DNA from: Eledone cirrhosa
Lineage: Eukaryota
Direction: 5' to 3'
Assembly (NCBI GenBank): GCA_964016885.1
Contig: OZ024742.1
Coordinates: 308,698,001 to 308,762,000 of the forward strand
Length of the DNA stretch: 64,000 nt
The notes below the pieces were generated by a model. That model did no database searches. It was not told where the DNA came from and was given only the letters and a program-made list of their open reading frames with translations. A program made the position numbers and the translations under genes. This document shows, piece after piece, positions 5,615 through 59,562 of the stretch. Numbering within the stretch: the stretch's first letter is position 1; every line of letters starts with the position of its first letter.

Positions 5615-7790
5615 CACTGGTCTCCGATGTTTTCAAGGTCTAACATATAATACATGATTTTAGGCCAGTTTTTTGCACTGAATCCAAAAATCATGCTCAT
5701 TTTACTCAATCAGATCAGGTTAATGAAATATTAGCACATTAAAAATATCCTAAATTCCGATCTATTTGTAGGTGAATAAAACGCAATATTGAAAATATTA
5801 GACTGATTTATTCACAGAAGGCTAACAAAATATTTTGAATAGATAGCAAGAAGAGTATAATGAACTAAGGAAGCTACTCATGGATGAATGGTCTCTTCAG
5901 GGACTTCCGTTTGTGCTGAGCAGACTGCGCATCCCTCTTTAGGCACCAGCAGTAGTCGGCCAGAAAGTTGACATCCCATCGGCCTTGATAGCGTTCCTCC
6001 ATAACACTGATATCTTGGTGAAAGCGCTCACCATGTTCTTCACAATTCTCTGGAAAATAGTCCAGATGAGACCGGAGGAAGACATTTTCACTGACATGCG
6101 CGCACCAAGTTGGCGGAAATTCTCCATTAACTCATCAACCACCTTCTGATATTGGGAACTTCTGTGGTTGCCAAGGAAGTTTGCAATGACTGACTTAAGG
6201 GACAACCAGGCAGAGAGTTCAGCAGGATTCAGTGCATCATCAAAACTAGTATCCTTGATGAGTTCCCTTATTTGAGGACCATCAAATATACCTGCCTTAA
6301 TTTTCTCCATGCTTTTTCGTTGAAACTTCTGATGGAGGAAAGCAAATCCTCCACCTTCCCTGTCCAATGCCTTTACAAAGTTCTTCATGAGACCGAGTTT
6401 GATGTGGAGGGTTGGAAGCAATATCTTGCTCGGTTCAACCAGAGGGTGGGACAAAACGTTGTGTGATCCAGGTTTTAATCCTTGTCTTAATGGCCACTCT
6501 TGTCTGACATAATGCTGGTCATCAGCATGGCTATCCCATAAGCACAGAAAGCATGGATACTTGTGTCACCACCTTGAAGTCCTAGGATGAGTCCAACAAC
6601 TTTAAGATCTCCACAGATCAACCATTTATATTTCTGGTATTTCAGAGCAGACAACAGACGTTCCATGCTTTTGTGGGATTCTTTCATTTCAACTGAGTGC
6701 CCAACAGGGATCGATGAAAACTTGTTTCCGATATTCAGAAGAACTGCTTTGAGACTTCTGTTAGATGAGTGAATGAAAAGTCTCCATTCCATAGCATCAT
6801 ACTTCAGACCAAGTAATTCAATCAGGTCAGCAATATTGCTACAGTAGACCAGTGAAGATGCTTCATCAAACATGAAGAATTTTCTAAATTCTCTCTTGCG
6901 GTCCCGATACCAATAGAATGTTGTTCCTGGCGCCAGTAGACGTTTCTCTCGAAGATGAGAACCCAGTAGCTGGGCAGACTCCTTCGAAAGGTTCAGGTCT
7001 CGTGTCAGGTCATTGAGTTCGGCTTGGGTCAAAGGCACCAGTTGGTCGTCCTCTTCTGACCTGTATTCATAACACTTAGCTGTATCAATCATGTCACTAG
7101 ATTCGGAATCAGAACTAGATTCCATTGTGACATTTGGCTCAGGAACAGGAAGATCGGGGCCATGGGGGACTGGCTTTATGGCAGAAGGAACATCAGGGTA
7201 TTGAACATGGTGCTTGTTCTTGCGATTGATGCCTTTTAGATTTGTCATGCAAAAGTAGCAGTCGGTAACGTGATCTTTCCCTTCCCTCCACACCATTGGG
7301 GCACCAAATGGCATACTCTTCCTTTTCTTGTTCCTCCAATCCCGTAACTTCTCTACACATGTTTTGCAGCAGATATGGGGAGCGAATAGCTTATCCTGGT
7401 CCCCTAGTTTGACCCCAAAGTAAGCGTGATATGCCTTCTTCACAAAATCCGTGATTTTTGCTTGACGGTCTGGAAGAACCACATGTCCGCAGATGTAACA
7501 GAACCTATTAGGATGGTTTTTACACTTCCGATCCATTTTTCTAGACCTGAAAAGAGAAATAAAAATAATTATTAAATGTTACCCACGATCCGGTTTTGCA
7601 AAAGCAAAGCCCATAAACGCTTGGATTGCGATATTTTAGAAAAATATGCTGGAAAAGAAATAGACTATATCTTAGAAACCAGACCTGACCCAGAAAAATA
7701 AACTGTATTTTTGAATTCAGCATACAAAAAGGGTCCTAAATCATTTGGAAAACCCTTGACCTTTTTAAAAAAGTTTTGAAACGCAGAGTG
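5615..7790 (-). mobile_element. Chapaev-type (CMC/Chapaev3-like) DNA transposon, copy 1
   Basis: CACT...AGTG termini with ~105-bp imperfect TIRs sharing AAGGTC, ATGATT(T)TAGG and CTGAAT.CAAAAAT. TTA on the left flank; encloses a transposase pseudogene. Confidence 0.75.
5874..7536 (-). pseudogene. Chapaev3-like transposase, frameshifted
   Basis: N-terminal Zn motif CKNHPNRFCYICG...DQDK..APHICCKTC...WREGKDHVTDCYFC, then WRLFIHSS.RSLKAVLL, ICGDLKVV, PTLHIKLGLMKNFVKAL and EHGERFHQDI. Frameshifts near 6570 and 6085. Confidence 0.8.
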
Positions 7791-8574: not shown

Positions 8575-10553
8575 CACCGTGTAACAAAATAATTTTTTTT
8601 CTGTTTCTCGCTTGTAATCACTTTTTTTGTGTTGCTTAGGTCCCAAATAAATAAATAAAAAGTGCTGTTAAACAGTTAAAAGTTTGGGTTTGCAAAAGTT
8701 CTAAGCTACAATTATTTATATGCTGGATTTTACGTTGTATTTAAGTTTAATTTGCTTATGTTAAATGATTTTTTTATATATGTTTCAGGTTAAATTAAAA
8801 TTATAAAATAAAGCGTAATACCTAAAAAAATTAGAAAAGTGCAATAAAGTATAAAATTGTTAAAAAGTGGATTAAAGAGATTTATTGATACTGGATTGTC
8901 GCACCCTGAATAAAGGGTAAGTTGTGTTTTAAGCCCGAATTTTCATTAGTATGATTAGTGTTCTTTTATATTATTTAAATATGTATTTCCCTTTCCAATA
9001 TTTATTTTGTATTGCATATCAAATTTATTTTCCAAGACAAGTATTCTGATGAAGAGGAGGAGATGGATGTTGAGGACTTGGATTACCTGCCTGAGGTACC
9101 AGAAAAAGTTCCTCACTTCTCAAACCCAAAAGAAGTCAATGACTTGGTCAGGGATATGGGTCTGACCAAGTCCAATGCAGAGCTATTCGTCTCCAGGATG
9201 AAGCAGTGGAACTTGGTCAAGGAGGAAGTGCAGGTGACAAGTCAGAGAAGTCGACACGAACCCTTCTCAGGCTTTTACACTCTTAGGGATGGCCTCTGCT
9301 TCTGCCATGACGTGCCTGGACTGTTTGGCGTTATTGGGTGCCGTTTGTGCCCAATGAGTGGGGTCTATTTATAGACAGCTCCACCACAAGTTTGAAGGCT
9401 GTACTCCTCCACAATGGAAACAAGTTCCCGACGCTGCCCCTAGCTCATTCAATCTGTCTGAAGGAAGATTACTACAGTGTGAAAGTCCTCTTGGAAGCTC
9501 TGCAATACAACCAGTACAATTGGGAAATCATTGGAGACTTCAAGATGGTGGCTTTCCTGCTTGAACTCCAAGGAGGCTTTATCAAATTCCAATGCTTCCT
9601 CTGCCTTTAGGACAGCAGAGCCACTACAAAAGAAAGAACTGGGAGCAGGGAACAGAATTTGTAGTTGGGACCCGGAACGTCATGTGGGAGCCACTGGTTG
9701 ATCCCAGAATTGTGCTCATGCCGCCACTTCACATTAAGTTGGGGTTGATGAAGCAGTTTGTGAAGGCTCTCAACCAAGAATCAGCCGCTTTTAAGTACCT
9801 TCCTGAGTTCTTCCCCAAGTTATCTGAGGCCAAAATCAAAGGTGGAATTTTTGTTGGACCTCAGATAAAGAAGGTGTTTGAGTCTACCGAGTCCTCCAAT
9901 AAGCTTAATAGGATTGAGATGAGAGAACAGCATGGAACTGTTTCAAGGCAGTTGTTAAGGGCTTCCTGGGCAACTACAGAGCTGAAAACGACCAGCAACT
10001 GGTGCAGGATCTGATAAAAGGCTTTTGACGCCATGGGATGCAGGATGTCGCTTAAACTCCATATGCTGGACGCTCACCTGGAAACATTCAAGGACAATAC
10101 GGGCGCCTACTCAGAAGAACAAGGCGAACGATTCCACCAAGATGTGAAAGAGATACAGCGGGGGTACCAGGGCCACTACAACGAAAAAATGATCGGGGAC
10201 TATATCTGGGGGCTAGTGCGGGAATGCGACCTGGACTACAACCGCAAATCCAGGAAATCCAGTCATTTCTGACGTGTATAAGTTGCTTTATAAGTGTTAT
10301 TTATTTTTACTTGTTTGCTTTTGATAAGCTTGTGTAATAAAATAAATATATACTCTGTTGATTTAATTATATGAACTGATAAATTTTTTTTAAATGTGTT
10401 TTATCTTGAAAAATATGAAAATTTCGAAATATCAAACTCCTGACCACAAACCCAAACTTCTGATTAAATAATAGTGTTTTTTTATAATAATGGGATATAA
10501 CAAACCATGAAATGACACTTAGAACCGGGGAACAAAAAATATGTTACACGGTG
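8575..10553 (+). mobile_element. Chapaev3-like DNA transposon, copy 2 (different family), with TTA target-site duplication
   Basis: Perfect 12-bp terminal inverted repeat CACCGTGTAACA...TGTTACACGGTG inside longer imperfect TIRs. TTA at 8572-8574 and 10554-10556; empty site at 11133-11170. Confidence 0.9.
9036..10272 (+). pseudogene. Chapaev3-like transposase lacking the N-terminal Zn domain, frameshifted
   Basis: EVNDLVRDMGLTKSNAEL, EWGLFIDSSTTSLKAVLLHNGN, IIGDFKMV, PPLHIKLGLMKQFVKAL and YSEEQGERFHQD spread over four frames. Homologous to copy 1. Confidence 0.8.
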
Positions 10554-11487
10554 TTATGAGAGACAAGATAATCGGAATAATTAAATTGACTCTACATCAG
10601 AGCTATGTAATATATTATAAAGTAAGAAGAAATATTAGACATGAATTAAATACCCATTTTTTCTTCAAATTCCCGACTGTACAGTTTCGTGGCTACTATG
10701 CAAAAATCCTATATCATAGAGATGTAACATTTTTGTGAGGTAGGCCGACTTTTCAAGGGAACACCTCAGAGAAAAATTTCAAAACAGGTCTGCATCGCGC
10801 AAGAGAATCTTGAAAAGGCGGAGGGAAACACTATCACGTGATACAGTGGTCAAGAAATGGGGTTAAATCCCTTGTAGCAGTGGCAAATATCGCAGAAGGC
10901 GGAGGGGATATTAATATGATACAGAGGCTACAGAAGGGTGGTAAGGAAGACTAGAAATTTATATCGTATTAGCTTGAAAGCAGTCACTATACTTCCGTCG
11001 CTACTCTACCGTGAGGGAGTTATAGACAATAATGAGAGGTGCACAAATATATGTGTATACATACATATACATGCATATATACACATATATTTTTCACAAG
11101 TATGTGAGATTGTGTGTTGTCGACCTTAACCAGTGTTGCTCTATGATTATGAGAGACAAGATAATCGGAATAATCAAATTGACTCTATATCAAAGCTATG
11201 TAATATATTATAAAGTAAAAAGAAATATTAGACATAAATACCCATTTTTTCTTCAAATTCCCGAGTGTACAGTTTCGTGACTACTATGCAAAAATCCTAT
11301 ATCATAGAGATGTAACATTTTTGTGAGGTAATCTTTCCTTGATGTGTTTCGTTGAAAAGTCAGCCTACCTCACAAAAATGTTACATCTCTATGATGTAGG
11401 ATTTTTGCATAGTAGCCACGAAACTGTACAGTCGGGAATTTGAAGAAAAAATGGGTATTTATTTATGTCTAATATTTCTTCTTACTT
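10554..11487. repeat. PLE-terminal-repeat-like relic: direct duplicate (10554-10741 / 11147-11329) plus inverted copy (11362-11487)
   Basis: Direct and reverse-complement identity visible by eye. The direct-plus-inverted layout is the same as in other PLE relics in the window. Confidence 0.6.
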
Positions 11488-11489
11488 TA

Positions 11490-12003
11490 GCAGTCTCTCT
11501 CTCTCTGTTAGCCTCTTCCTCACCTTTCACTCACTCACTCTCTCTCACTACCTCTCCTCCTCCCCTTTCTTCCCGTTTGACCTGTCCGTAATCCTTTTCT
11601 CGCGGACACTTGGCCAAGCCGGTATGAATTTTTTTCTCTCTCTCTCTCGTCTGCGACTTCACAGAACTTTGTTTACCGAATTCGCAGACCAGACCCCTTC
11701 TTCCTCCCGTTAGACCTGTGCGAAATTCCTTCCTTGCTCACATTTCAACCAGGTTTGATGGTCTTTATTCTCTCGTTCACGATTCCACCGAACTTATATT
11801 CATAGAAATCTGGGACATGTTTCTTTCTTCTTCTTCATCACTTTCTGTTGCTTAAACCATTTTGTTTGTTTACCCTAGCGTCCCCCTTATTTACGTGTCC
11901 CAACGACTTTTTTTAGCCGTTGCTCGCACCAACCTGAGGTATATGGCCTTTAATGCGACGAAATGCCTACGACGGTTGGAAGGCCACTGATGAGGAAAAA
12001 CTT

Positions 12004-12010
<7 letters not shown>
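11490..12010 (+). repeat. Dispersed pyrimidine-rich repeat (copy at ~59020-59545 minus; relative at 13460-14100) ending in a truncated HHR-like CCACTGATGA
   Basis: High similarity to the reverse complement of 59060-59545; ends at (TA)n. Confidence 0.65.
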
Positions 12011-12047
<37 letters not shown>

Positions 12048-12334
12048 AAATAACGAAACGAAATTAAATTTCGTTTCGTTTGTAACTCACTTTTGTATGA
12101 CTGACGCTTAAACAATTAAGTTAAAAATGTACATCCACATATGTATACTGAAATACTAGTATGCATATGAATACACACACGTATACATATGTAGATGTAC
12201 CGAGTTTTTCACTGGTCACTTTACTGTGAGTGTCCAGCTATTCTGTATGTAAACACACAGACAAACCGGTTTTTAGAGTCATACTGGTTTTTGAGGAAAC
12301 ACCTTTCCTCTATTCTCCAGAAAGCCAGACAAGG

Positions 12335-12379
12335 AATATTGAACTAGTTTCGATGTTGTTACATCTCATCAGCAATATT
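12335..12379 (-). ncRNA. Minimal type I hammerhead ribozyme (array A unit 1)
   Basis: AAUAUUG CUGAUGA GAUGU aaca ACAUC GAAAC ua GUU CAAUAUU: 7-bp stem I, 5-bp stem II with G10.1-C11.1, palindromic ACUAGU stem III, GUU triplet. Confidence 0.9.
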
Positions 12380-12800
12380 TACCTATCTTCCGGCCTCTCT
12401 AGAGAATCGTAAAAGCACATATCGTTATATGCTTTTTCAATGAAAATTAGTAGTGGGCAGACTAATTTGCATAGAGCGTGAGTACGTACCGGTTCAACGG
12501 AGACGATAAAAACAAATAACGAAACGAAATTAAATTTCGTTTCGTTTGTAACTCACTTTTGTATGACTGACGCTTAAACAGTTAAGTTAAAAATGTACAT
12601 CCACATATGTATACTGAAATACTAGTATGCATATGAATACACACACGTATACATATGTAGATGTACCGAGTTTTTCACTGGTCACTTTACTGTGAGTGTC
12701 CAGCTATTCTGTATGTAAACACACAGACAAACCGGTTTTTAGAGTCATACTGGTTTTTGAGGAAACACCTTTCCTCTTTTCTCCAGAAAGCCAGACAAGG

Positions 12801-12845
12801 AATATTGAACTAGTTTCGATGTTGTTACATCTCATCAGCAATATT
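12801..12845 (-). ncRNA. Minimal type I hammerhead ribozyme (array A unit 2)
   Basis: Identical to unit 1, offset +466. Confidence 0.9.
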
Positions 12846-13266
12846 TACCTATCTTCCGGCCTCTCTAGAGAATCGTAAAAGCACATATCGTTATATGCTT
12901 TTTCTATGAAAATTAGTAGTGGGCAGACTAATTTGCATAGAGCGTGAGTACGTACCGGTTCAACGGAGACGATAAAAACAAATAACGAAACGAAATTAAA
13001 TTTCGTTTCGTTTGTAACTCACTTTTGTATGACTGACGCTTAAACAATTAAGTTAAAAATGTACATCCACATATGTATACTGAAATACTAGTATGCATAT
13101 GAATACACACACGTATACATATGTAGATGTACCGAGTTTTTCACTGGTCACTTTACTGTGAGTGTCCAGCTATTCTGTATGTAAACACACAGACAAACCG
13201 GTTTTTAGAGTCATACTGGTTTTTGAGGAAACACCTTTCCTCTATTCTCCAGAAAGCCAGACAAGG

Positions 13267-13311
13267 AATATTGAACTAGTTTCGATGTTGTTACATCTCA
13301 TCAGCAATATT
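13267..13311 (-). ncRNA. Minimal type I hammerhead ribozyme (array A unit 3)
   Basis: Identical to unit 1, offset +932. Confidence 0.9.
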
Positions 13312-14179
13312 TACCTATCTTCCGGCCTCTCTAGAGAATCGTAAAAGCACATATCGTTATATGCTTTTTCTATGAAAATTAGTAGTGGGCAGAATAATTT
13401 GCATAGAGCGTGAGTACGTACCGGTTCAACGGAGACGATAAAAACAAACGAAACGAAAGACCAGATACCTCAAGACAGTGCAAGCAATAACTAAAATAAG
13501 TTATTGGGGTAAAAAGAATTGGGACAAAAAGAAAGAGACATGTAAACAAACAGAATGGTAAGGCAACGCAAAGAGAGGAAGATGAGAAAGCAAGTCTGTG
13601 ATACATTGTGAACTTAAGTTCTAGCAAATCAATGACGAGAAGAACAGACGCGTCCAAACCTAGCGAAATGTGAGCGAGAAAAGGATTTCACACAGGTCAG
13701 ACGGGAGGAAGTGAGAGAGGGGGAGTAGCAGAGAGTGAGTGATTGAAATTGTGAGGAAGAGGCCAGCTGAGAGAGGGTGACCAGCAGAAGGGGGTGAATG
13801 AAAGTAAGAGATACAAGGAGAGAGAAGGGGGAGAGAGGAAGAGGATAGCAGTAAGGTAATAGAAACACACAGGTCACAGCGAAGGGAAAAATATATATGA
13901 ATGAAAACTCGTCATTGATTTGCTAGAACATAAGTTCACAATGTATCACTGACTTTCTTATCTTCCTCTCTTTACATTGCCTTACCATTCTGCACCCAAT
14001 TCTTTTTATCCCAATAACTTATTTTGGTTATTGCTCGCACTGTCTTGAGGTATTTGGTCTTTAATGCGAAGAAATACCGATGATAGCCAGAAGATCACTG
14101 ATAATGGATAGTCCTGGTTTCTTGCTCTATTTTTTTATTTTCACTTGTATCATATTCGCAACAACGCAGCACGCCATTT

Positions 14180-14220
<41 letters not shown>

Positions 14221-14400: not shown

Positions 14401-17400
14401 TTGGGATGATTTTGGGCGGCACAAGTATCAATGTGTTCACTCAGTGGTATTTTCCTGTATTCCCGTATTTTAATTTGGGATCTATGGACAGTCATGCGTT
14501 GGTGGAGGCTGTTTTTAGTCTGGCCTATGTATTGTTCTAGACAACCGGCGCAAAATAAATTTTTTACATTCACATGACCTCTACCGACCAATCAAAATTG
14601 TTTTGACCACAAGAATTTTTGCAACACCAAAGTAGCGCTGGAGCCACTTTTTTAACATAAAAACAGGTAGAATTCCCAAAATTAATCAGATCAGAGCAAA
14701 CAACACGGACACTCTATCTCAAAATTATTTTTGAAAAGCATTTAGAAATGCGCAACCGGTAAAAACTTAAAAACTTAAAACCACAACTGAATACTAACCC
14801 ATACAATTACTAATACTCTTTTATTCCTAATTAAACTATTTTTTCAACTGTGAACAATTTGTCAGCATGTTCTATTCCGTTTACCAATATATAATAACTT
14901 GTGTGTTACACCTCTATTCTTTTAACTATCATATCCTCACACGAGATACAGAAAATGCCAACAAAAACGGATACAACCCTCATCAACAGAAATGAAGAGA
15001 TCCTACAGGAACTCAAGAAAATCAACACCAACCTATCTTTGCTGGTCGACAAACTTGACTCCACAAATAAGGAAACCGCCACCGGATACAAACCCTCCGA
15101 AATCGGCGACAAACTCCAAAACCTTTGCGATACTATCCAAACTATGTTCACTACTACCAACCCAGGAAAAACCAACGAAGAACCATGTGAGATTGATTCA
15201 TACAAAATGAAAATTCGAACAATTCCAAAATCGAACAAATCCCTCAGAGACAGAAAGTTCTCATTCTGGAAAATGATACCAAATCACAACAAAGCGGAGA
15301 TATATGAAAAATGGCTTAACTCAACCCCTCTAACTCTCCCCCGTAAACTACAAATAAAGTCCATTCCAAATGAACCCGAACCTCAAAGACACCTTAGGGA
15401 AAGAATGGCATTGGAAAAAATGAAGACAGAAATTGAACTTCTTAAATTGAGGGCCCAGACAAATGAGGAAAAAATCAAAACCGTCGATGAAGAGATCCTC
15501 CTGGAAATCAACAATAAAACTGAAGGCCCCAAGGTAGAGAAGATCTCCAAATTATGGAAAGGGGACTGCAACAGAGAAGAACTAAAATCCCTTCAACGCT
15601 GGGAAAAAAGTGCCGCTTGATTCCTACACTATGAATCGACTTTTCAAACGGATTACACCTCCAATAACCCGTTCATAAAAATAGGAAAACCCATAACTGA
15701 ACCGCACAAAAACTTCTCAAACCCCCAAGCCACTAACAAACGAAGAAGGAAGCACCACACCGAAGATGAACTTCCCAACCTCGCTACCATAAGAAGGAAC
15801 AAAAACCCAAGAAATCATCTCCCCCAGAATGACATTTACAACTTTCCCCCTTCAAGGAGACACCATACCAAATCACTCAACTACTACGCGGATGCCTCAT
15901 CGTCAAACATAGGGAAAAGATACCACCACCATGATAGATGTAACAACTTCCCCGCTTCAAGGGGACAGCAAGGTAATTACCATTTTCTCAACTCTCGCTT
16001 CCACAATACACAACAAACCCACACCACACGATACAACCAACAACGTAGGCCACTTATAACAACACAATACAACATGGCACATAGAAACACACACCCATAC
16101 TCGCAGTACAGGAACACCCCATTCAATCTACAACCACCAACCCGAACCACATTTTACAACAACAAGGAATATAACAAACACAGGAGACCACTTAACATCA
16201 GCAGACAACCCCTCTACCCCAACCATTTTTTAGACACAGCACACAGATACAGCCAAACAAAATAACACAAGACAGGGAGGCGAAACCGATAGTAATAAAA
16301 ATTATCAATCTTACTAGTGCAGAACCAACACCCAACCTTATCAACTTACTCTCCAAAGGTCTTAAATTCACCGTCCTAACTACTATGAAATGAAGGAAGA
16401 CATCACAGACTTCTGTAGAAAGTTACGACTTAGTGAACAACTATTCGACCAGTACAATGAGGATGAATCATTAGCCAGAAATAGAAGCAATTACACCCCT
16501 TCAAAAGGTAGAAATAAAATCCTGGACGAATTCTGTGAAGACATCACAAACTTCCCTTACCAACACTTGCACAGACAAAAACACAAGCCAAACCTCAACA
16601 AGAAAGAATGGGAAGAATTAAATAGATTAAAAACCGACAGAACCATTACAATTAAAGAGGATGATAAAGGGAGTACAGTAGTCCTAATGGAGACAGAATT
16701 CTATATCAACTTAGCGCTCTCCACTTTGGAAAACGAAACATACTACGAAAAGGCTGAACACTACAATCAACAGAAAATTATGAGAAACCTAAAAACTCTA
16801 ATCAACCAATACAAAGAAGGACTCACTAACAAGGAATTCAGCTTCATCACAGACTTCACAAGTAAATCCAGCCTTTTCTACGGTATCCCTAAAGTACATA
16901 AAAGCGAATTAATAAGTAAGGCATGCAAGGAAGCCACAGACATAGTCATCAATGTCCACTCACCCAATGATCTCAAATTAAGACCTATAATAGCAGGCCC
17001 CGCATGCGAAACCCACCGCCTTAGCAACTTCATTGATACCCTTCTCAAGCCCTTTCTCAAACACATCAAAAGCTATATAAGGGACGACCTAGATATGCTC
17101 AATCACCTCCCTAATATGCCACTTTCTGAACAAACCCTACTACTGACGTTCGATGTAGTCAACCTATACTCCAACATCCCCCACAACCTAGGAATAGAAG
17201 CTATCCAATTCTGGCTGGATAATTACCACAATGAACTCCCACAACGCATCAAAAAAGAATTCGTGATAGAGGGACTCAAATTTATCTTGGAGAACAATTA
17301 CTTCGTTTTCAATAACAAACCCTACAGGCAGAAATCTGGGACCGCTATGGGAATGAAAACAGCCCCCACTTATGCCAACCTAGTCATGGTATTCCTGGAA

Positions 17401-18656
17401 ATCACCCTCTACACTAAAGTCCTAAACAAATTTGGAAACACCCTCCACTTACACATTGAAAGGAACTGGAAGCGATATCTAGATGACTGCTTCATCCTTT
17501 GGCACGAAAACATCGAAAAACTTAAAGAATTTCACACCCTTATAAATGGGCTCAACACAAATATTAACTTCACGATGGAATACAGCCATCAACAACTCCC
17601 CTTCCTCGACATCCTCATTAAGATACATAACAACAAAATAGAAACAGACATATACTACAAGCCCACAGACTCCAAGCAATATCTTCCTTTCAACTCTTGC
17701 CACCCTAGACACGTTAAAATTAATATTCCCTACAACTTAGCCAAGAGAATCTGTACTATAGTCTCCAATAAAAACACCTGCTACTTACGGCTACAAGAAC
17801 TAAAGGACACACTTATAGGCAGGGACTACCCTGCATCACTAATTGACAATGGAATCCAACGTGCACTAAAACTCAGTACCCAGGACCTTAGACACCCTAA
17901 AGTAAATCAACCGAAACTAAAAGCTCTTCCATACATCTCCACACACAACCCCCTCAACAATGAGGCCTTTGACACCATCCTCCAGAACATCCCTGTGTTG
18001 AAAAAGGACCATAGAATGAACCAAATCCTACGAACACACGATATCATAAAGAGCAAAAGTCAATCCAAGTCAATGAAAAACATCCTAACACATGCCAAAG
18101 TACTGCCAACCACAACAACGAAACCCACAGTAAAAAAAATGCGATAGACCCAACTGTGGCATTTGCATCAACCTAATAGGGGGTTCGGAATTATATTTCA
18201 AAGAAGGACAACGTTTTATAGTAAAACACAATTTCACATGTGCATCGGAAAATCTAATATATGTATTAACTTGCTCAGGTTGTCGAGAACAATACATAGG
18301 CCAGACCAAAAACAGCCTCTGCCAACGCATGACTGTCCATAGATCCCAAATTAAAATACGGGAATACAGGAAAATACCACTGAGTGAACACATTGATACC
18401 TGTACCGCCCAAAATCATCCCAACTTCCGAATCTTTCCCCTCTACAAATTTAAAGATAATGCTACCCACACCCAGCGCATCAGCAAGGAATCTTACTTTA
18501 TTAACAAATACGGACCCCGTCTAAACACTTCTCCCTAAGACGAACCCACAACATACACACGTCAACATACATACCTACATCAGCACACATATCTACCCAC
18601 ATATAAACACAATGACATACGTAAACACACATGCTCTATGGTGCAACACAAAAAAA

Positions 18657-22575: not shown

Positions 22576-23046
22576 ATATTAACAAATGGAAACTATATTT
22601 ATAAAACCATATTTATTTCATTATACATATTTCAAGGGCCACCTCAGCAAACTATAGTGCGCTTTCATCAGAAAACATTCCCTATTCCAACGGCTTAATT
22701 TAAATATACTATTTTTAAACCTTTCCAACACTAATTTACATAATAAACCAACAATAAATCTAATAACTCCACTATCCAGGAGATTCCAACCAGAATGGTT
22801 GCATTTTTTAAGGGTATGTCAATATTTATTTATAAAACTAACGTATATTATATTTTATCTGATGAAAGCGCACCATAGTTTGCTCAGGTGGCCCTTGAAA
22901 TATGTATAATGAAATAAATATGGTTTTATAAATATAGTTTCCATTTGTTTATATATTGTAAATTTACTCCAATAATTTATTGAGTGCTTTATATCAGTTA
23001 TAAAAATATTTTGCTTGTTGTATCCCAACAAATTAAATATAACCTC

Positions 23047-32998: not shown

Positions 32999-33034
<36 letters not shown>

Positions 33035-33057
33035 TATATTTATATATATATATATAT

Positions 33058-35629
33058 CACAATTATAAAGAAACTCTTCCAGCTATCTGAAAAGCGCGCC
33101 AAAGCCGGCTGCCAAATAAACTTTCTAAAACGATGCCTGAATAACAACATCATCCCAAAAACTATCAAAAATGTGCACCTACCAACATGCTTCAAATCAC
33201 CAGGCCTCAAACGATCACTTAGTTACATACAAAAATTCTGCCTAAGAAAACTCATACAACACCTACACCGCACGCTACGACAACACATACGGACTATTTC
33301 CAACCTTGTACCACAACTCGCTGAAAACCCAAACCTCTGTCCAGAGTCATCTCCGCCGCTATAGACAGGTCATACCACCATCGCCGAGACTACGAGAAAA
33401 TACGTCTAACGCAAAAATTTCTCAAACTCAGGACGGCCAACTGTCTTAACAACATCCCAACTCTAAACATCAACAGAGGCGAACAAGACGGTACCAACAC
33501 CGAACCTAGCGGCGCCCCGATCAACAACACACCTGACGCAAAACACCTCGTCACAGATTTGACAGGATCCCTCTCCCGAGAGGAATTAGACCTCCTCAGC
33601 CTGGGTCCCAAGTTCATATTGAAACACAGACTGGACGACAAATTATGGCTCGACATAGAAACGAATTTCTGTCGGGCTGCCTACCAACTAAAATGGATAT
33701 CGACTCTCGGCAACAACACCACAGAATCTATCAAACCCAGATTCCCGATATACCAACTAGATCGCCCACTCTGTCCACCGCCTGCCAACCGCGAGCTTGA
33801 GGAAAAATTCTCGAGACTAAAACATTCCGTATTTAACATCTTACGGAAACAGAAGAAGATCGCCCCAAACCTCTTCAGGACACAACAACTCGCCCTGAAG
33901 AACCTACGGAATAAGGAACTTATATACTTACCATCCGACAAAGGTAAAGAGTTTTGCGTCATCTCTCAAGCCACGTACAACAACCTAGCCTTTGAACACC
34001 TAAGCGACAATGAATTATACACAGAGATCCCGGACATGACTGCAGCCCAGATCGAAAAACAGACCAACTCCATCTGGTTCGATATCTGTAGGAGAAGACA
34101 ACTCCCAAATAAAGTTAAGCTCAACTACACCACTAGAAATAGCAGACTTTCTACCACCTCACCAAGACCCACAAGAATAGTACTAAGACGCAAATAAGAC
34201 CCATCGTCTCTAGCATAGAAGGACCCCTATACAAAATTTCCTGGCTCCTCTCCCAGGTCCTCAAGCCTCTACTCTCCACCTTCCCCGGGCATGTCAGTAG
34301 CTCCGACGAAGTTATACGTAGACTACACCAACTCCAGCCAGAACAACTTAAACTAAATAAATACGCCTTTAGCCTCGACGTTGTCTCCCTCTACACTACA
34401 GTCCCCGCTCGTCCAGCTGTCGATTTATTGACGGACTGCGTGGTCGCAGAGGACATCCACTGCTACGGCCTCCACCCGACGGACATACACCAGCTTTTGT
34501 CCTTCACAGTAGACAACACGTACTTCACCTTCCACCACCACACATACAGACAGACAACAGGATTACCCATGGGATCCAGCCTATCGGGCCTCGTGGCCAT
34601 CATCTACATGAACCAGCTAGAATGCCGAGCCCTCAACACCTGCCATTCCCATACCTTCTTCACCCGATATGTAGATGACATACTCATCCTTACATCATCC
34701 CGTGAGGAGGCAGATAAAATATACACAACATTCTCCAGCATGTACGCCAGTATAAAGTTCAGCATGGAACACCCCGATGACCGCAAATCCCTATCCCTAC
34801 TTGACTTCCAACTCAGGGTAACAGAGAAAGGCAACATCCACACCTGCTTCTATAAAAAAGCCGCCAGCAGGGACCTGTTCGTACATTTCAGATCGGCCCT
34901 CCCACTCGGTGCCAAGTTCGCATACATAAGGAATGAACTGCCACGTATCCGGAACAAATGCACCGACGCTAGAGACCGAGACACACACACCACACATTTC
35001 CTGGAAGTACTCAAACTGAACGGATACACGACATCCACCACAAACCGTGCCAGAAAGAACAGAGGACACCGCACCCGAGGCACTAACACTTGCTTCCTGA
35101 AGCTCCCACACTTCAGTGAAGAAACAACAACAGCCATCCGCAGAGCTATCAGACGAGAGGGACTAGATATCCAACTGGCCCACTCAGGTCCTTCTCTACG
35201 CGGACAGCTAACCAAAAGACACTCCACCAGACATGACAACTGCTGCAGACTAGCCAACTGCCCCATTAACGACACAGACCTATGCCACCAGGCTTACGTC
35301 GTATACAGACTAGAATGTAACAAATGCAACAACTTCTACGTAGGTAGCACCACCAGACCACTCCACGTAAGAATAAAAGAACACCTCAATACTAACGCTT
35401 CCTCATTTAAGAAACAGCTAGTTAAATGCAAAAACACCGACAAAACCATAACAGTTAGGATAGAAACCAAGGAAAGAAACCTCGGCAATCTTAGAATTAA
35501 GGAAGCACTAATTATAGACAAAACACAACCACCAATCAATAATAGACTAGAACTCAACACCCAATTTATAACTTGATAGAGCTTCTAGCCCCATATTTAC
35601 ACACACACCCCGCACACACACGCACACAC

Positions 35630-35666
<37 letters not shown>

Positions 35667-36130
35667 TACACCTCCACTTATTCTCTCTCACACATACACA
35701 CACAAAACCAGTTCTAACACTATTCGAATAGACATATCTTCTCACACTCACACACACACACTCACATACTTACACCTTCATGCATTCTCCCACACACTTA
35801 AACATTCATGTATATAAAAAATATAAAAAAACAAAAACAAACCCCTTTTAAAGGGAGACTACTCTTTATCCACCTAATCTTAACTCTTTGACATTAGAGA
35901 TAGAACAGATACTCTATACCATTTCCTGTCAGCATGACTTGGCAAACTATTTAGAACACTGGTTGACAACTTTACTTCGCTCTGAAGAAGAGATATTATC
36001 ACGAAAATTAAGGACACTTAAATAAATCTAAGGTAAAAGACTAATTGTCAACAATATCTTTTGCATTTGCATTCTCTATTTTATGTCCATACCTGCATTG
36101 TGTTGGCTTTATTATACATATACAAACCTT
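33058..36130 (+). mobile_element. Penelope-like element (Poseidon-like; clade uncertain), 5'-truncated, in (TA)n
   Basis: Coding region followed by a CA-rich 3' region; (TA)n on both sides. Confidence 0.85.
33559..35576 (+). pseudogene. PLE RT + GIY-YIG endonuclease with a frameshift near 34148
   Basis: LLSLGPKF, PSDKG, FYHLTKTHK, IRPIVS, SLDVVSLYT, GLPMGSSLS, RYVDD, SLLD and YVVYRLECNKCNNFYVGSTTRPLHVRIKEH. Confidence 0.9.
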
Positions 36131-36436: not shown

Positions 36437-36653
36437 ATTAAGTTAAAAATGTACATCCACATATGTATACTGAAATACTAGTATGCATATGAATACACAC
36501 ACGTGTACATATGTAGATGTACCGAGTTTTTCACTGGACACTTTACTGTGAGTGTTCAGCTATTCTGTATGTAAACACACAGACAAACCGGTTTTTAGAG
36601 TCAAAGTGAGTTACAAACGAAACGAAATTTAATTTCGTTTCGTTATTTGTTTT

Positions 36654-38322: not shown

Positions 38323-38559
38323 CATGCTACTGTACGTCTGTATACATATATGTATGTACGTATACATACATACTTACATTTAAGTAAGTGCCATACTAAG
38401 AGTGAGAAATGAAATTTCGTTTTCATTTTTTTTCAACTTATCGTTTTTGGTATGCCTGACCGATTTAACTCATTCAATATGCAAATTAGGCTGCTCAGCC
38501 GTTAATTTTCATAAGGAAAGTATATACTTTCGAACGTTCAACTATCTGGCAGATGGGTA

Positions 38560-38604
38560 AACGGTGCTGATGATAGCTAACAAGCTTGAAACTAGTACAT
38601 CGTT
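38560..38604 (+). ncRNA. Minimal type I hammerhead ribozyme (array B unit 1)
   Basis: AACGGUG CUGAUGA uAGCU aaca AGCUu GAAAC ua GUA CAUCGUU: 7-bp stem I, U-U at 10.1/11.1, palindromic ACUAGU. Confidence 0.85.
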
Positions 38605-38768
38605 CCTGTGTCAGTGTTGAACAAAAAGGTGACGTGGTTGCCTTAACACCGTATGGCATAAATTCAGGCTGTTCAGTTTGTTGACAAACGAACAAAGCGG
38701 CGTTATAATAAGCGTCCGCTAAACTGATGCGTGCATATGTGTATGTGTACCTGTATGTATATATATAT

Positions 38769-38835
<67 letters not shown>

Positions 38836-39070
38836 TGCTACTGTACGTCTGTATACATATATGTATGTACGTATACATACATACTTACATTTAAGTAAGT
38901 GCCATACTAAGAGTGAGAAATGAAATTTCGTTTTCATTTTTTTTCAACTTATCGTTTTCGGTATGCCTGACCGATTTAACTCATTCAATATGCAAATTAG
39001 GCTGCTCAGCCGTTAATTTTCATAAGGAAAGTATATACTTTCGAACGTTCAACTATCTGGCAGATGGGTA

Positions 39071-39115
39071 AACGGTGCTGATGATAGCTAACAAGCTTGA
39101 AACTAGTACATCGTT
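39071..39115 (+). ncRNA. Minimal type I hammerhead ribozyme (array B unit 2)
   Basis: Identical to unit 1. Confidence 0.85.
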
Positions 39116-39264
39116 CCTGTGTCAGTGTTGAACAAAAAGGTGACGTGGTTGCCTTAACACCGTATGGCATAAATTCAGGCTGTTCAGTTTGTTGACAAAC
39201 GAACAAAGCGGCGTTATAATAAGCGTCCGGTAAACTGATGCGTGCATATATGTATGTGTACCTG

Positions 39265-39316
<52 letters not shown>

Positions 39317-39553
39317 CATGCTACTGTACGTCTGTATACATATATGTATGTACGTATACATACATACTTACATTTAAGTAAGTGCCATACTAAGAGTGAG
39401 AAATGAAATTTCGTTTTCATTTTTTTTCAACTTATCGTTTTCGGTATGCCTGACCGATTTAACTCACTCAATATGCAAATTAGGCTGCTCAGCCGTTAAT
39501 TTTCATAAGGAAAGTATATACTTTCGAACGTTCAACTATCTGGCAGATGGGTA

Positions 39554-39598
39554 AACGGTGCTGATGATAGCTAACAAGCTTGAAACTAGTACATCGTT
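39554..39598 (+). ncRNA. Minimal type I hammerhead ribozyme (array B unit 3)
   Basis: Identical to unit 1. Confidence 0.85.
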
Positions 39599-39747
39599 CC
39601 TGTGTCAGTGTTGAACAAAAAGGTGACGTGGTTGCCTTAACACCGTATGGCATAAATTCAGGCTGTTCAGTTTGTTGACAAACGAACAAAGCGGCGTTAT
39701 AATAAGCGTCCGCTAAACTGATGCGTGCATATGTGTATGTGTACCTG

Positions 39748-39809
<62 letters not shown>

Positions 39810-40044
39810 TGCTACTGTACGTCTGTATACATATATGTATGTACGTATACATACATACTTACATTTAAGTAAGTGCCATACTAAGAGTGAGAAATGAAAT
39901 TTCGTTTTCATTTTTTTTCAACTTATCGTTTTCGGTATGCCTGACCGATTTAACTCATTCAATATGCAAATTAGGCTGCTCAGCCGTTAATTTTCATAAG
40001 GAAAGTATATACTTTCGAACGTTCAACTATCTGGCAGATGGGTA

Positions 40045-40089
40045 AACGGTGCTGATGATAGCTAACAAGCTTGAAACTAGTACATCGTT
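40045..40089 (+). ncRNA. Minimal type I hammerhead ribozyme (array B unit 4)
   Basis: Identical to unit 1. Confidence 0.85.
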
Positions 40090-40238
40090 CCTGTGTCAGT
40101 GTTGAACAAAAAGGTGACGTGGTTGCCTTAACACCGTATGGCATAAATTCAGGCTGTTCAGTTTGTTGACAAACGAACAAAGCGGCGTTATAATAAGCGT
40201 CCGGTAAACTGATGCGTGCATATATGTATGTGTACCTG

Positions 40239-40282
<44 letters not shown>

Positions 40283-40519
40283 CATGCTACTGTACGTCTG
40301 TATACATATATGTATGTACGTATACATACATACTTACATTTAAGTAAGTGCCATACTAAGAGTGAGAAATGAAATTTCGTTTTCATTTTTTTTCAACTTA
40401 TCGTTTTCGGTATGCCTGACCGATTTAACTCACTCAATATGCAAATTAGGCTGCTCAGCCGTTAATTTTCATAAGGAAAGTATATACTTTCGAACGTTCA
40501 ACTATCTGGCAGATGGGTA

Positions 40520-40564
40520 AACGGTGCTGATGATAGCTAACAAGCTTGAAACTAGTACATCGTT
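40520..40564 (+). ncRNA. Minimal type I hammerhead ribozyme (array B unit 5)
   Basis: Identical to unit 1. Confidence 0.85.
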
Positions 40565-40713
40565 CCTGTGTCAGTGTTGAACAAAAAGGTGATGTGGTTG
40601 CCTTAACACCGTATGGCATAAATTCAGGCTGTTCAGTTTGTTGACAAACGAACAAAACGGTGTTATAATAAGCGTCCGCTAAACTGATGCGTGCATATAT
40701 GTATGTGTACCTG

Positions 40714-40749
<36 letters not shown>

Positions 40750-40987
40750 CATGCTACTGTACGTCTGTATACATATATGTATGTACGTATAGATACATAC
40801 TTACATTTAAGTAAGTGCCATACTAAGAGTGAGAAATGAAATTTCGTTTTCATTTTTTTTTCAACTTATCGTTTTCGGTATGCCTGACCGATTTAACTCA
40901 CTCAATATGCAAATTAGGCTGCTCAGCCGTTAATTTTCATAAGGAAAGTATATACTTTCGAACGTTCAACTATCTGGCAGATGGGTA

Positions 40988-41032
40988 AACGGTGCTGATG
41001 ATAGCTAACAAGCTTGAAACTAGTACATCGTT
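40988..41032 (+). ncRNA. Minimal type I hammerhead ribozyme (array B unit 6)
   Basis: Identical to unit 1. Confidence 0.85.
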
Positions 41033-41178
41033 CCTGTGTCAGTGTTGAACAAAAAGGTGACGTGGTTGCCTTAACACCGTATGGCATAAATTCAGACTGT
41101 TCAGTTTGTTGACAAACGAACAAAGCGGCGTTATAGTAAGCGTCCGCTAAACTGATGTGTGCATATATGTATGTGTAC

Positions 41179-41273
<95 letters not shown>

Positions 41274-41385
41274 TGCTACTGTACGTCTGTATACATATAT
41301 GTATGTACGTATACATACATACTTACATTTAAGTAAGTGCCATACTAAGAGTGAGAAATGAAATTTCGTTTTCATTCTTTTTCAA

Positions 41386-45489: not shown

Positions 45490-46225
45490 TATGCATGTAT
45501 GTATACGTACATATATATATGTATACAGACGTACAGTATTATGTATATATATACATACATGCACACATATATATATGCACGTATCGGTTTACCGAACATT
45601 TATTATAATGCTCGATTTGTTTGTTTGTAAACAAACAAACAGCCCGAATTACGCCGTACAGTGTTTAGGCAACCACGTCACCTTTTTGTTCAACGCTGAC
45701 ACAGGAACGATGTACTAGTTTCAAGCTCATTAGCTAAGAGTGAGAAATGAAATTTCGTTTCATTCTATTCTATTTATCGTTTTCGGTGTGTCCGGCCGAC
45801 TGAACTCACACGATATGCAAATTAGGCTGCTCAGCCGTTAATATGCATAAGGAAAGTATATACTTTCAGACGTTCAACCATCTGGCAGGAAGGTATACGA
45901 TGCTGACGATAGCTAATAAGCTTGAAACTAGTACATCGTTCCTGTGTCATTGGTGAACAAAAAGGTGACGTGGTTGCCTAAACACTGTACGAGTATTTCG
46001 GGCTGTTTGTTTGTTTACAAACAAACAAACCGAGCATTATAATAAATGTTCAGTAAACCGATACGTGCATATATATTTATATATGTGTGCATGTATGTAT
46101 ATATATACATACTACTGTACGTATGTATACATATATGTATGTACGTATACATACATGCATACTTACATTTAAGAAAGTGCCGTACTAAGAGTGAGAAATG
46201 TAATTTCGTTTCATTCTATTCCATT
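45488..46225 (+). repeat. Diverged solo monomer of the array-B family with inverted 5' arm (45488-45737)
   Basis: Colinear with array-B units; flanked by (TA)n. Confidence 0.85.
45897..45939 (+). ncRNA. Minimal type I hammerhead ribozyme (array-B family solo copy)
   Basis: ACGAUG CUGACGA uAGCU aaua AGCUu GAAAC ua GUA CAUCGU; the G-U pair of array B is A-U here. Confidence 0.85.
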
Positions 46226-46319
<94 letters not shown>

Positions 46320-46489: not shown

Positions 46490-46492
<3 letters not shown>

Positions 46493-47754
46493 CTTTACTT
46501 TTTACTAATGATAATATTTGGGTTAAAAAGTCAAACCCTGAAAACTCTTTCGATGTTGCAATGGGTTCTTATGACAGTGCGGATGTGTGCGACTTAGTAG
46601 GATTATTCCTTCTCCACACACTCAAAGAGAAATTTCCGTCCCATAAAATCGGTTTATACCGTGATGACGGATTAGCAGTTTCTCATACCACCAATGGCCA
46701 TAATCTTGATAAATTCCGTAAAGATTTAATTAGTACCTTTGCTAATCTTAACCTTAAAATTACTATAGATACGAACCTTACTAATGCTAACTTTCTTGAT
46801 ATTAATCTTGATCTACTTACTGCCTCTTTTAAACCCTATCATAAACCTAATGAAAATCTTAGGTATATACACAAAGAGTCTTGCCATCCCCCTATAGTTT
46901 TTAATAATCTTATTCCTAACATTAGCCGTAGGATTTCTACTTTATCTTCGTCTATAGACATTTTTAATAAAGCCGCCCCTTATTATAATAAAGCCCTTAA
47001 GAACAGCGGTTTTACAGAAAATATTTCTTATCTACCTACTCCCCCCCCTAAAACTAACCATAATAACAGGAAAAGGAAGATTATTTGGTTCACACCCCCC
47101 TTCTCTCTAAATGTCAAAACTAATGTAGGAAGGAAATTCCTTGAACTATTAGACAAACATTTTCCTCCTATTCATAGATATTATAAGATTTTTAATAGGA
47201 ATGTAGTTAAGATCAGCTACTCTTGTTGTCCATCCATGAAATCCAAAATCACCAGTTCAAACCGTACGAGGATAAATCCAGGATGCAGTTGCAGGAAGCC
47301 GGATGAATGCCCATTGCAGGGTAAATGTAACACAAAATCTGTCGTTTATGAGGCTAAAATAACGCCAGTTATCAACAACCAGCCAGCCAGAAGCGAGCGA
47401 TATGTCGGTATGACCCAGGACAGGTTTAAAACCAGATTTTACTCACATGTCGCTTCTTTTAAACACTCAGATAAACGAACATCAACGGCCCTCGCAAGTA
47501 AGGTATGGGATCTCAAGGATAGTAATATCCCGTACTCCATTGATTGGTCTATATTAGACCATTCGAGGGAGTACCAAAGGGGCACAAAGAATTGTTCTTT
47601 GTGTACCACAGAAAAGTATAGGATTTTGCTAAACTTGAGAGACACTTCCGCTTGCCTTAACTCTAAGACTGAGATCTTCAGATGCTGTCCTCATCTGAAA
47701 TCGCATCTGATCTGTAACTGGATTGACACTCCTACGATAAATCAACCGCCTTGA
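46490..47754 (+). pseudogene. 5'-truncated Naiad-like PLE ORF (RT C-terminal half + GIY-YIG), uninterrupted
   Basis: [82 protein letters not shown] and CPH. Begins at (TA)n, so the ORF track's 5' part is microsatellite. Confidence 0.88.
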
Positions 47755-49623: not shown

Positions 49624-49681
49624 TTCATTCTGAGGATTGAAAGCAAAACCTTTTGCTTTTAAGAAACCACTGGTAAATGGA
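49624..49681 (+). ncRNA. Type I hammerhead ribozyme
   Basis: UUCAUU CUGAGGA UUGAAAGCAAA accu UUUGCUUUUAA GAAACC acu GGUA AAUGGA: 11-bp stem II, GUA triplet. Confidence 0.82.
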
Positions 49682-55338: not shown

Positions 55339-56051
55339 AACAAGTAGGACCCCGCCGGCTGAGCTCAAGCCGTTTCGACGGCTAATTCTGGACTAAATGA
55401 ACATTTTTATCCTGGTATATGAATAGCCGAGCTTCTCAGGGGGTAATTCCATATATGGTAAAAGTGATTGTCACAAGGATTGGTCAAAAGTTTGTTGTTG
55501 AGACACATAATTCTATCATGGCAATTTGTGGAGGGAAAGGGTAGCTGAACCTGCCAGTAGAAGAAAGAGGGAGAGGGGTGGAGAAAACCCAGTCGTGCGT
55601 TGATAGTGACAGCTACAGCTGGGCAGGAGGTAAAAGAAGTATACTAGGGAGGGGGAGGGGGAGGATGTCGAAACAATAAGTAAAGCAATATGGGGTAAAT
55701 ATATAGAAAAATACCGAGAATGTTAAAAAACAATTAAATGTAAAAAAAAAAAATTCTGGTTACTATAACCTAAGGACAGCTATCAAGTCTCTCACTGGTA
55801 CTGCTAGACTAAAGAAAGGTTTACTAGGTGGGACCGAATTATAATGAGACCCTTTTAAGAGGTAGAAGTAATCAACCGAGTATATCTTACGGTGACGGGT
55901 CAACAAGTGGGGGGCCAAAATACTAAAGAAACTACCACGAAATAATAATTCAGAGTCCCGAGACCAATACGAAATAAAGGTTTCTACCCCAGGCACAAGG
56001 CCAGCAACCACCCAGTGCAAAAATAAATAAACTAATACGAAATAATAATTC

Positions 56052-56740
56052 AGAATCCCATGGTTCAATCTTCCCCACAACGCCGAGGTGACAACTCCTA
56101 TCGGGAAAATATTCTTTAGGCTCATCGAAAAACACTTCCCACTACAACACCTCTACCACAACATAATTAACAAAAATACCATCAAACTCTCCTACAGCAC
56201 CACACCAAACTTTGCACAAAACATCGTCTCCTCTAACAACAAAAACTCAACCCCTATGGAAGAAATAACCTACATAGCAGTGGAGAGCCGACCAGGAGGT
56301 GCAACTGTCCTGATAGATCCAGTTGCCCCCTCGACAACAGATGCAGAGATCGTAATGTGATCTACCAGTGCAACGTGAGGACGGACACCTCCAACAAAGC
56401 TTATATAGGATTAACCGCATGTGACTTCAAGACCCGGCTATACCAACACAGACATACCTTCCGAAACCCGGCCCGGCGTCACGCCACTACACTTTCGGGC
56501 CACATATGGGACCTCAAGCATAACAATATTACCTATGATCTCACTTGGAGCTTACTGTCCAGAGCCAACTCTTACACGGGAGGACGCCGTCTGTGCAATT
56601 TATGCTCAGAGGAAACTTTACAAATGCTGTTTTCGACGGACCAACTCCTAAACAAGAAAGATGAACTGGTTACTGCATGTAAACACGGATTGCGTAGGAC
56701 TTACCTCGCCCTCAAACCCCATAATGACCCGGGGGGGTAG
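56052..56740 (+). pseudogene. Naiad-like PLE C-terminal fragment (GIY-YIG), one frameshift near 56270
   Basis: RIPWFNLPH..TPIGKIFFRLIEKHFP..IINKNTIKLSYS / RRCNCPDRSSCPLDNRC..NVIYQC..YIGLT..FKTRLYQH..CNLCSEE..CKH; homologous to 46490-47754. Confidence 0.85.
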
Positions 56741-58747: not shown

Positions 58748-59562
58748 TTGTACATATATATATATAACGAAGGAAGTGTGGTTAAGAATCTGGTGGACCA
58801 TAACAGACCAGAGTACTCGATACTTTGGGTAGTAGAGTGGGTAATAAGAAAAGAGTCAGAACCCCGACGGCAGAGTACTTTACCACACTTCCTTTGTTAT
58901 ATATATATATATGGGATAATAAATTATTGTTCGTATATATATATATATACCTTCCATATACTGTACCGATTGTGTTGTTATTTCTGTTTACCTTTTACAT
59001 ACATATATATATATATATGATAATAATGGAGCTGCGGCGTTGCAAATGGGCTACATATGAAAAAGTAAGTCCTTCATCAGTGGCGCTCCAACCGTCCCAG
59101 GCATTTCATCGCTTTAAGGGCCATATACCTCAGGTTGATGCGAACAACGGCTAAAAAAAGTCGTTGGGACACGTAAATAAAGGGGACGCTAGGGTGAACA
59201 AACAAAATGGTTTAAGCAACAGAAAGTGAGAAGAAAGAGACAAGTCCCAGATTTCTATGAATATAAACTCGGTGAAATCGTGAACGAGAGAATAAAGACC
59301 ATCAAACCTGGTTGAAATGTGAGCAAGGAAGGAATTTCGCACAGGTCTAACGGGGGGAAGAAGGGGTCTGGTCTGCGAATTCGGTAAACATAAGTTCTGT
59401 GAAGTCGCAGACGAGAGAGAGAGAGAGAGAGAAAAAAAAATTCATACCGGCTTGGCCAAGAACGCGCGAGAAAAGAAATCGGACAGGTCAAACGGGAAGA
59501 AAGAGGAGGAGGAGGAGGAGAGGTAGTGACAGAGAATGAGTGAGTGAAATACATACATACAC

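Follow-up and report, generated by a model that had tools for sequence, protein, structure and literature searches.

In a 64,000-nucleotide stretch of the Eledone cirrhosa genome (the window), a 466-bp sequence is repeated three times head to tail, with a hammerhead ribozyme motif on the minus strand of each repeat. The question raised by this locus is what kind of element it represents, which machinery inserted it and from what form of RNA it was copied. The reading that we consider best, with moderate confidence, is that of a young non-coding hammerhead family whose RNA is copied by the reverse transcriptase and endonuclease of PLEs, the template most often probably being a 466-nt circle.

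The tandem array

The original prediction of three near-identical units was borne out: the array spans positions 12044–13441 with a 466-bp period, 3.0 copies and 99% matches, and four private sites (12439, 12581, 12778 and 13394) separate the units from their majority, which is also the majority sequence of a 31-unit array on contig C1. Units are numbered along the ribozyme strand, so that unit position 1 is 12509, position 466 is 12044 and the cut falls at 168/169. On this minus strand the 3'-most unit occupies 12044–12509 and ends at the family's "long" 3' end, the middle unit occupies 12510–12975 and the 5'-most full unit 12976–13441, and the copy as a whole constitutes one long-ended arm of 3.0 units. 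Its 3' end runs into a (TA)n target tract at 12008–12043, and just inside the long end lies a 13-bp terminal hairpin (12052–12080, minus strand), both features as originally noted. The family's second, "short" 3' end (unit 396–401) corresponds to 12109–12114 on the minus strand, within a small hairpin, and is not used as an end by the copy at 12044–13458. The motif ATGCAAAT (12465–12472, minus strand) is common to a sister family and altered in some loci; it is octamer-like, and we take it to be a putative promoter element. The 60-aa reading frame seen on the plus strand is present as one stop-to-stop frame of 60 codons per unit, the longest ATG-started ORF being 50 aa. With pure tandem units, no coding capacity, apparently no LTR/PBS/PPT organisation and a GC content of 36%, below the 50% mark, the array has the make-up of a non-LTR retrozyme.

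The 5' joint at 13442–13458 consists of an arm stub and a probable 15-bp stump of a lost opposite arm (13444–13458, plus strand). It has the same sequence as the central joints of L085 and L188, in which the opposite arm follows in full, and for this reason a second-arm stump is more likely than a 5' stub with a 3-nt deletion. A 3-nt microhomology (13456–13458) is found between the joint and a neighbouring older repeat at 13456–14181, and the second arm was probably lost along with the end of this repeat. The window holds another, small insertion of the 466-bp family at 36437–36652, which is two-armed, with the short end at 36437 and the long end at 36652, both in TA tracts.

The hammerhead ribozyme

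A minus-strand hammerhead was confirmed in each unit, with C3 at 12372, 12838 and 13304. The cores lie at 12335–12379, 12801–12845 and 13267–13311, and cleavage is predicted at 12342/12341, 12808/12807 and 13274/13273; the first of these, at a GUU site, was the cut originally proposed and agrees with hammerhead numbering. Helices I, II and III comprise 7 bp, 4–5 bp and 2 bp, the last closed by a palindrome, around a consensus core. The Rfam model Hammerhead_HH9 matches 12319–12390 full-length with 36.5 bits (E 7.3e-8; gathering score 52), and no Rfam match at gathering level was found anywhere in the 64-kb window. In this match helix I goes on beyond an internal loop, and for this reason the label "minimal" attached to the motif at first names the wrong class. 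By the descriptions in PMC4209133, the ribozyme is a canonical metazoan type I hammerhead, here with an extended helix I and a weak helix III, and not a min-HHR. It shares with the min-HHR of PLE pLTRs, as portrayed there, a predicted action as dimers, a palindromic 15.2–16.2 region and a G10.1–C11.1 pair, but it lacks the additional base of the min-HHR between positions 9 and 10.1, and in place of a long helix II and a short helix I it has a helix II of 4–5 bp and a helix I of 6–7 bp that continues past the internal loop.

Compared with shuffled sequences, the 45-nt core folds no better (z −1.5), the 101-nt context reaches z −5.3 and the whole unit z −8.2; in the fold of a circular monomer, helices I and II form with pair probabilities of 0.63–1.0. 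When 28 units are aligned, pairing in the predicted structure amounts to 99.2%, and 44 cells are doubly changed, a number reached in 0 of 500 shuffles. Six pairs show compensatory change, which is no excess over shuffles (228 of 500 reach six), and the structure was itself derived from this alignment. The core hardly varies, its changes being restricted to single loci, and a compensatory A-U/U-A swap in helix II occurs in 29 loci. Of 64 locus majorities, 37 have U and 27 have C at position 17, which makes the site GUU or GUC. GUU is named as cleavable and most natural hammerhead sites are GUC (PMC1636495, PMC3138052).

U17 lengthens the palindrome from 6 to 8 bases, with a computed self-duplex energy of −6.6 vs −4.8 kcal/mol, and in the fold computation the lengthened palindrome would pair A14 and U17; cofolding yielded an intermolecular duplex spanning the helix III palindrome. 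We infer that U17 would slow cleavage. Owing to the 2-bp palindromic helix III, the window hammerhead is expected to need dimers, in line with the account of such helices in PMC4209133. The release of a 466-nt RNA by the window copy, which formed part of the original prediction, is in doubt because helix III would be too short to support folding of a monomer (PMC4209133), because U17 lengthens the competing self-duplex and because just one of nine Xenopus retrozyme dimers cleaved in vitro (10.64898/2026.07.22.740005).

Family size and 3' ends

An exact search with the 31-nt core returned 2,600 matches genome-wide, whereas the reversed control returned 0, which argues that the hammerhead is not a chance occurrence. 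A search motif relaxed to take in the sister family, represented in the window by an array at 38.4–41.4 kb, gave 40,074 matches. The window's own 3' junction with (TA)n has 254 exact matches genome-wide and a form two bases longer has 1,792, making over 2,000 exact long-end junctions in both forms; the short junction at unit 396–401 has 900. The family is dispersed and multicopy, ranges from monomers to multimers and carries a type I hammerhead in every unit of a short tandem repeat, as retrozymes do. Two sequencing runs assigned by their codes to other organisms also contain near-identical pieces, one of 343 nt (3 differences) and one of 495 nt (7 differences).

The two fixed 3' ends, at unit ~466–468 (long) and ~396–401 (short), are about 67 nt apart and lie in (TA)n, the AT-rich kind of target that marks PLE-mobilised elements. 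Since both insertion ends lie in (TA)n, no target-site duplication can be read. In the predicted structure a small hairpin contains the short end, and the long end falls within a helix that pairs unit 420–425 with 27–32 of the next unit, and both strands of this helix are kept in the sister family. Such a helix across the unit border would fit a start inside a longer or circular RNA.

Two-armed insertions

A total of 115 loci were examined: 16 came from a DNA search, 20 were all those to which the first 100 core matches belong, and 79 were drawn from the opening section of the long-end list. A locus was counted as two-armed and complete when its arms were joined 5' to 5' and both 3' ends lay in (TA)n, and 72 of the 115 loci have this architecture. 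Seven others are cut by the edge of the retrieved sequence and 36 fall outside the strict rule, several of them having a short-end stub a few bases long. L079, L081, L135, L136 and L151 are incomplete, and L130, a duplicate of L129, was dropped from the counts; these two represent one two-armed insertion found twice, ~17.6 kb apart, as a segmental or assembly duplicate.

In 70 of the 72 two-armed loci a long end is paired with a short end; there are no long/long and no short/short pairs, and two loci have another end. The same pairing was found in 12/12 loci of a set picked by the ribozyme word alone. The short-end list contains two possible short/short pairs, at G000:C1:141066903-141067663 and 270269358-270279463. 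The arms are 5'-truncated and head-to-head with scattered 5' ends, and the central joints are mostly abutting or overlap by a few bases. Mirrored flank similarity was detected in 1/70 loci, and this lack of mirrored flanks argues against a fold-back assembly artefact. An ORF-bearing hammerhead PLE family in the same genome has long and short head-to-head ends 45–55 nt apart in 5/5 two-armed loci listed.

An inverted, 5'-truncated copy with a one-sided tail is the described footprint of PLEs (PMC8557442, PMC3846280), and the two-end pattern of a PLE has been traced in vitro to two internal reverse transcription start sites, used after AT-rich nicks on both strands (PMC11167929). The 466-bp family has the inverted, 5'-truncated head-to-head copy and the longer 3' end on one side, and because arms and tail match this footprint (PMC8557442, PMC3846280) we attribute its mobilisation to PLEs. 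We hold with high confidence that the window array is a real, young non-LTR retrozyme mobilised by a PLE; the original view of it as a young multimeric retrozyme, with ends of Penelope type, is backed by the copies, ends and arms of the family as a whole.

The RNA template

Among 144 arms, 113 cross at least one cut site and 85 are longer than one unit, and 5' ends show no enrichment at the cut site (6 vs 3.4 expected; uniformity p=0.23). These figures rule out linear monomers as the template. Of the variants in 40 informative short loci, 201 are confined to single units, 11 are shared within an arm and 9 between arms; 13 of the loci carry, between them, 23 locus-private alleles fixed in every unit of both arms. 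One locus of about 17 units has one private difference. By these comparisons short arrays were uniform at birth. Fixation of private alleles in every unit of both arms requires a one-unit bottleneck, which a monomer circle would supply.

The same PLE enzymes and start sites could instead have copied the uncut linear multimeric transcript of a source array that was itself very young; the hammerhead would then be a rare cutter or passenger, and no circle would be needed. This would explain why seven of the nine between-arm variants are in register from the 3' ends in both arms (L040, L063 and L166), a pattern that by sequence fits a heterogeneous linear multimer template, and it would accommodate the weak helix III, the GUU site, the eight of nine Xenopus dimers left uncleaved (10.64898/2026.07.22.740005) and the anole PLE, which used mainly uncut RNA and for which the hammerhead was dispensable in vitro (PMC11167929). 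However, just 4 of the 40 informative loci share variants between arms, as against 13 with private alleles fixed in all units, the ~0.5–1.5% unit divergence of arrays should pass to daughters in register, and the core and helix II are conserved. We consider this explanation rather unlikely.

A further scenario, raised in 10.64898/2026.07.22.740005, has PLEs make insertions of one or two units that become multimers later, by unequal crossing-over or slippage like satellites. Blocks of variant units do repeat in arrays of 15–51 units, which indicates local DNA-level expansion of long arrays; at G000:C1:81846800-81871800 (L070–L072) an arm of at least 51 units has higher-order repeat blocks and resembles a retrozyme turning into a satellite. 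As the origin of multimers in general this scenario is very improbable, since hardly any variants of short arrays go beyond one unit (201 single-unit, against 11 shared within an arm), and since the two arms of a locus often both have several units, which resemble one another as closely between arms as within them.

Stops after whole rounds at an arm's own start number 16 vs 8, which is not significant (Fisher p=0.22) in windows chosen post hoc. More 5' ends than expected fall at unit 1–14 (12 vs 4.2), an excess for which the hairpin could be sufficient cause. Judged from sequence, a circular monomer is fairly likely to have been the main template.

Edit-like scars

Substitutions were polarised on a tree of 84 loci and divided into those on terminal and those on internal branches. 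Terminal, locus-fixed changes on the ribozyme strand include 32 A>G vs 12 T>C (p=0.002), with 11 C>T and 10 G>A, whereas internal branches show no bias (26 A>G vs 21 T>C) and neither do single-unit changes that arose after insertion (22 vs 29). With ADAR site preferences as the yardstick, the 32 terminal A>G changes fall at 22 sites in 21 loci, 24 of them at paired positions and two after G. A-to-I editing of the RNA template would be the simplest reading of the A>G excess.

Neighbouring elements and the search for a partner PLE

The original prediction called for a genome search for multimers and for a PLE carrying the unit; the multimers were found, and in the loci examined no PLE sharing sequence with the 466-bp unit was. 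In these loci no ORF with reverse transcriptase and GIY-YIG domains is contiguous with the repeat, and the PLE 3' regions carry other hammerheads. The "pLTR" label given to the array at first is accordingly not retained, no autonomous PLE with the 466-bp unit as its pLTR having been found among the loci examined. That the unit is the pLTR of an unsampled autonomous PLE, and the arrays its 5'-truncated by-products, would agree with the PLE-type ends and with the occurrence of hammerheads in PLE pLTRs (PMC4209133). Yet arms longer than one unit enter another unit and never an ORF (115 loci), and PLE coding sequence adjoins none of the 33 free 5' ends, of which five lie at the edge of the retrieved sequence and are cut there, which leaves this explanation very improbable.

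A young PLE beside the array (14401–18655), considered as the partner, has RVT_1 (Pfam) and GIY-YIG matches, a CX4CxxC linker, stops and a frameshift, and an inverted piece at 14401–14570; in two tandem loci its 14898–18538 region, of which the genome has many intact 784-aa frames, lacked a hammerhead of the 466-bp family's type and was not significantly similar to the unit. A motif that kept helix III and varied the length of helix II gave few matches (201 and 109), mostly indel variants among the first 100 of each. What looks like a chimera of PLE and unit in L174 is explained by a nested insertion, a TA tract separating the two. PLE-like ORF fragments of other families lie at 33002–35700 (RVT_1 and GIY-YIG), 46492–47754 and 55763–56740, the latter two without a Pfam match.

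The sister hammerhead family is found on the plus strand at 38400–41385 and 45490–46226, the latter copy being two-armed. Its unit is ~430 bp plus a variable TA tract, with a GUA site and a U-U at the base of helix II, and it has in common with the 466-bp family the helix III palindrome, the helix I loop flanks, the octamer-like motif and the long-end position. Other hammerhead-like motifs, with a long helix II, occur at 22859–22900 and 49630–49666 (both plus strand), and their relatives recur in the loci examined. The older non-coding repeat family flanks the array at 11493–12007 and 13456–14181, with a further copy at 59020–59549; the family ends in (TA)n, has CTGATGA-like words near its end and is two-armed at 13456–14181. 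A 280-bp near-palindrome in 11147–11489 duplicates 10554–10778. Related broken ORFs at 5939–7578 (minus strand) and 8979–10270 (plus strand) have a Cys-rich N-terminal part and no Pfam match (one tested), and probably belong to a DNA-transposon family.

Proposed mechanism

Transcription of tandem copies would yield RNA of the hammerhead strand, in which hammerheads would fold in pairs via the helix III palindrome and excise monomers, and a host ligase would circularise these. ADAR would edit the paired RNA. The PLE protein would nick both strands of a TA tract and prime two cDNAs at two internal sites, each cDNA would circle the template over a variable distance, and the two cDNA ends would meet by microhomology. 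In the window copy the second arm probably went together with the end of the neighbouring repeat, and very long arrays would have been enlarged afterwards by DNA-level duplication.

We tentatively propose, at somewhat less than even probability for the scheme as a whole, that the arrays are records of rolling-circle target-primed reverse transcription, in which a PLE enzyme pair uses the two ends of a cut TA tract as primers at two fixed positions on a single 466-nt circle edited by ADAR, and each edit is stamped in all units of both arms. In this rolling-circle reading, edits in every unit of both arms follow from running round one circular template. The slower-looking GUU lineage may have spread by sparing its template.

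Comparison with known systems

Neither the element class nor the PLE footprint is new, and the added value lies in their joining. Mobilisation of retrozymes by PLEs via circular RNA was proposed in 2014–2020 (PMC4209133, PMC7229834) and a link between the two was argued in 2026 from co-occurrence and phylogeny (10.64898/2026.07.22.740005), these papers leaving the mechanism open. Searches of the largely open-access literature listed no paper that describes two-armed retrozyme insertions or editing scars in them; the supplements of the retrozyme papers may show insertion ends. The 466-bp family offers footprints at sequence level, namely two exact start sites, paired arms and edit-like scars that are fixed within each insertion, together with a substrate of defined length (466 nt), and these make the question of circle versus linear template directly testable.

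Like the metazoan non-LTR retrozymes (PMC7229834; 10.64898/2026.07.22.740005), the 466-bp family has non-coding tandem units with GC below 50%, one type I hammerhead each, a helix III that is weak and palindromic like that of the axolotl motifs, a strong tendency to self-pairing by prediction, and PLEs in the genome. Its unit length of 466 nt compares with 150–450 (PMC7229834) and 51–972 (10.64898/2026.07.22.740005). For retrozymes, inverted arms, a tail or TA targeting are not described in these two sources, in which circles and cleavage are experimentally proven, whereas the 466-bp family is known from genome sequence alone.

The EN+ PLEs (PMC8557442, PMC3846280) and the anole Poseidon PAc (PMC11167929) resemble the family in their head-to-head inverted copy, one-sided tail, AT-rich or (TA)n targets, microhomology joints, a hammerhead upstream of the ends, and ends in or beside stem-loops. 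Unlike them, the 466-bp family has no ORF, both of its arms are multimeric, its tail is ~67 nt as against 30–40, and its long/short pairing is nearly strict. The Chlamys elements such as MRC1 (PMC8557442) are likewise non-autonomous PLE derivatives with multicopy head-to-tail insertions.
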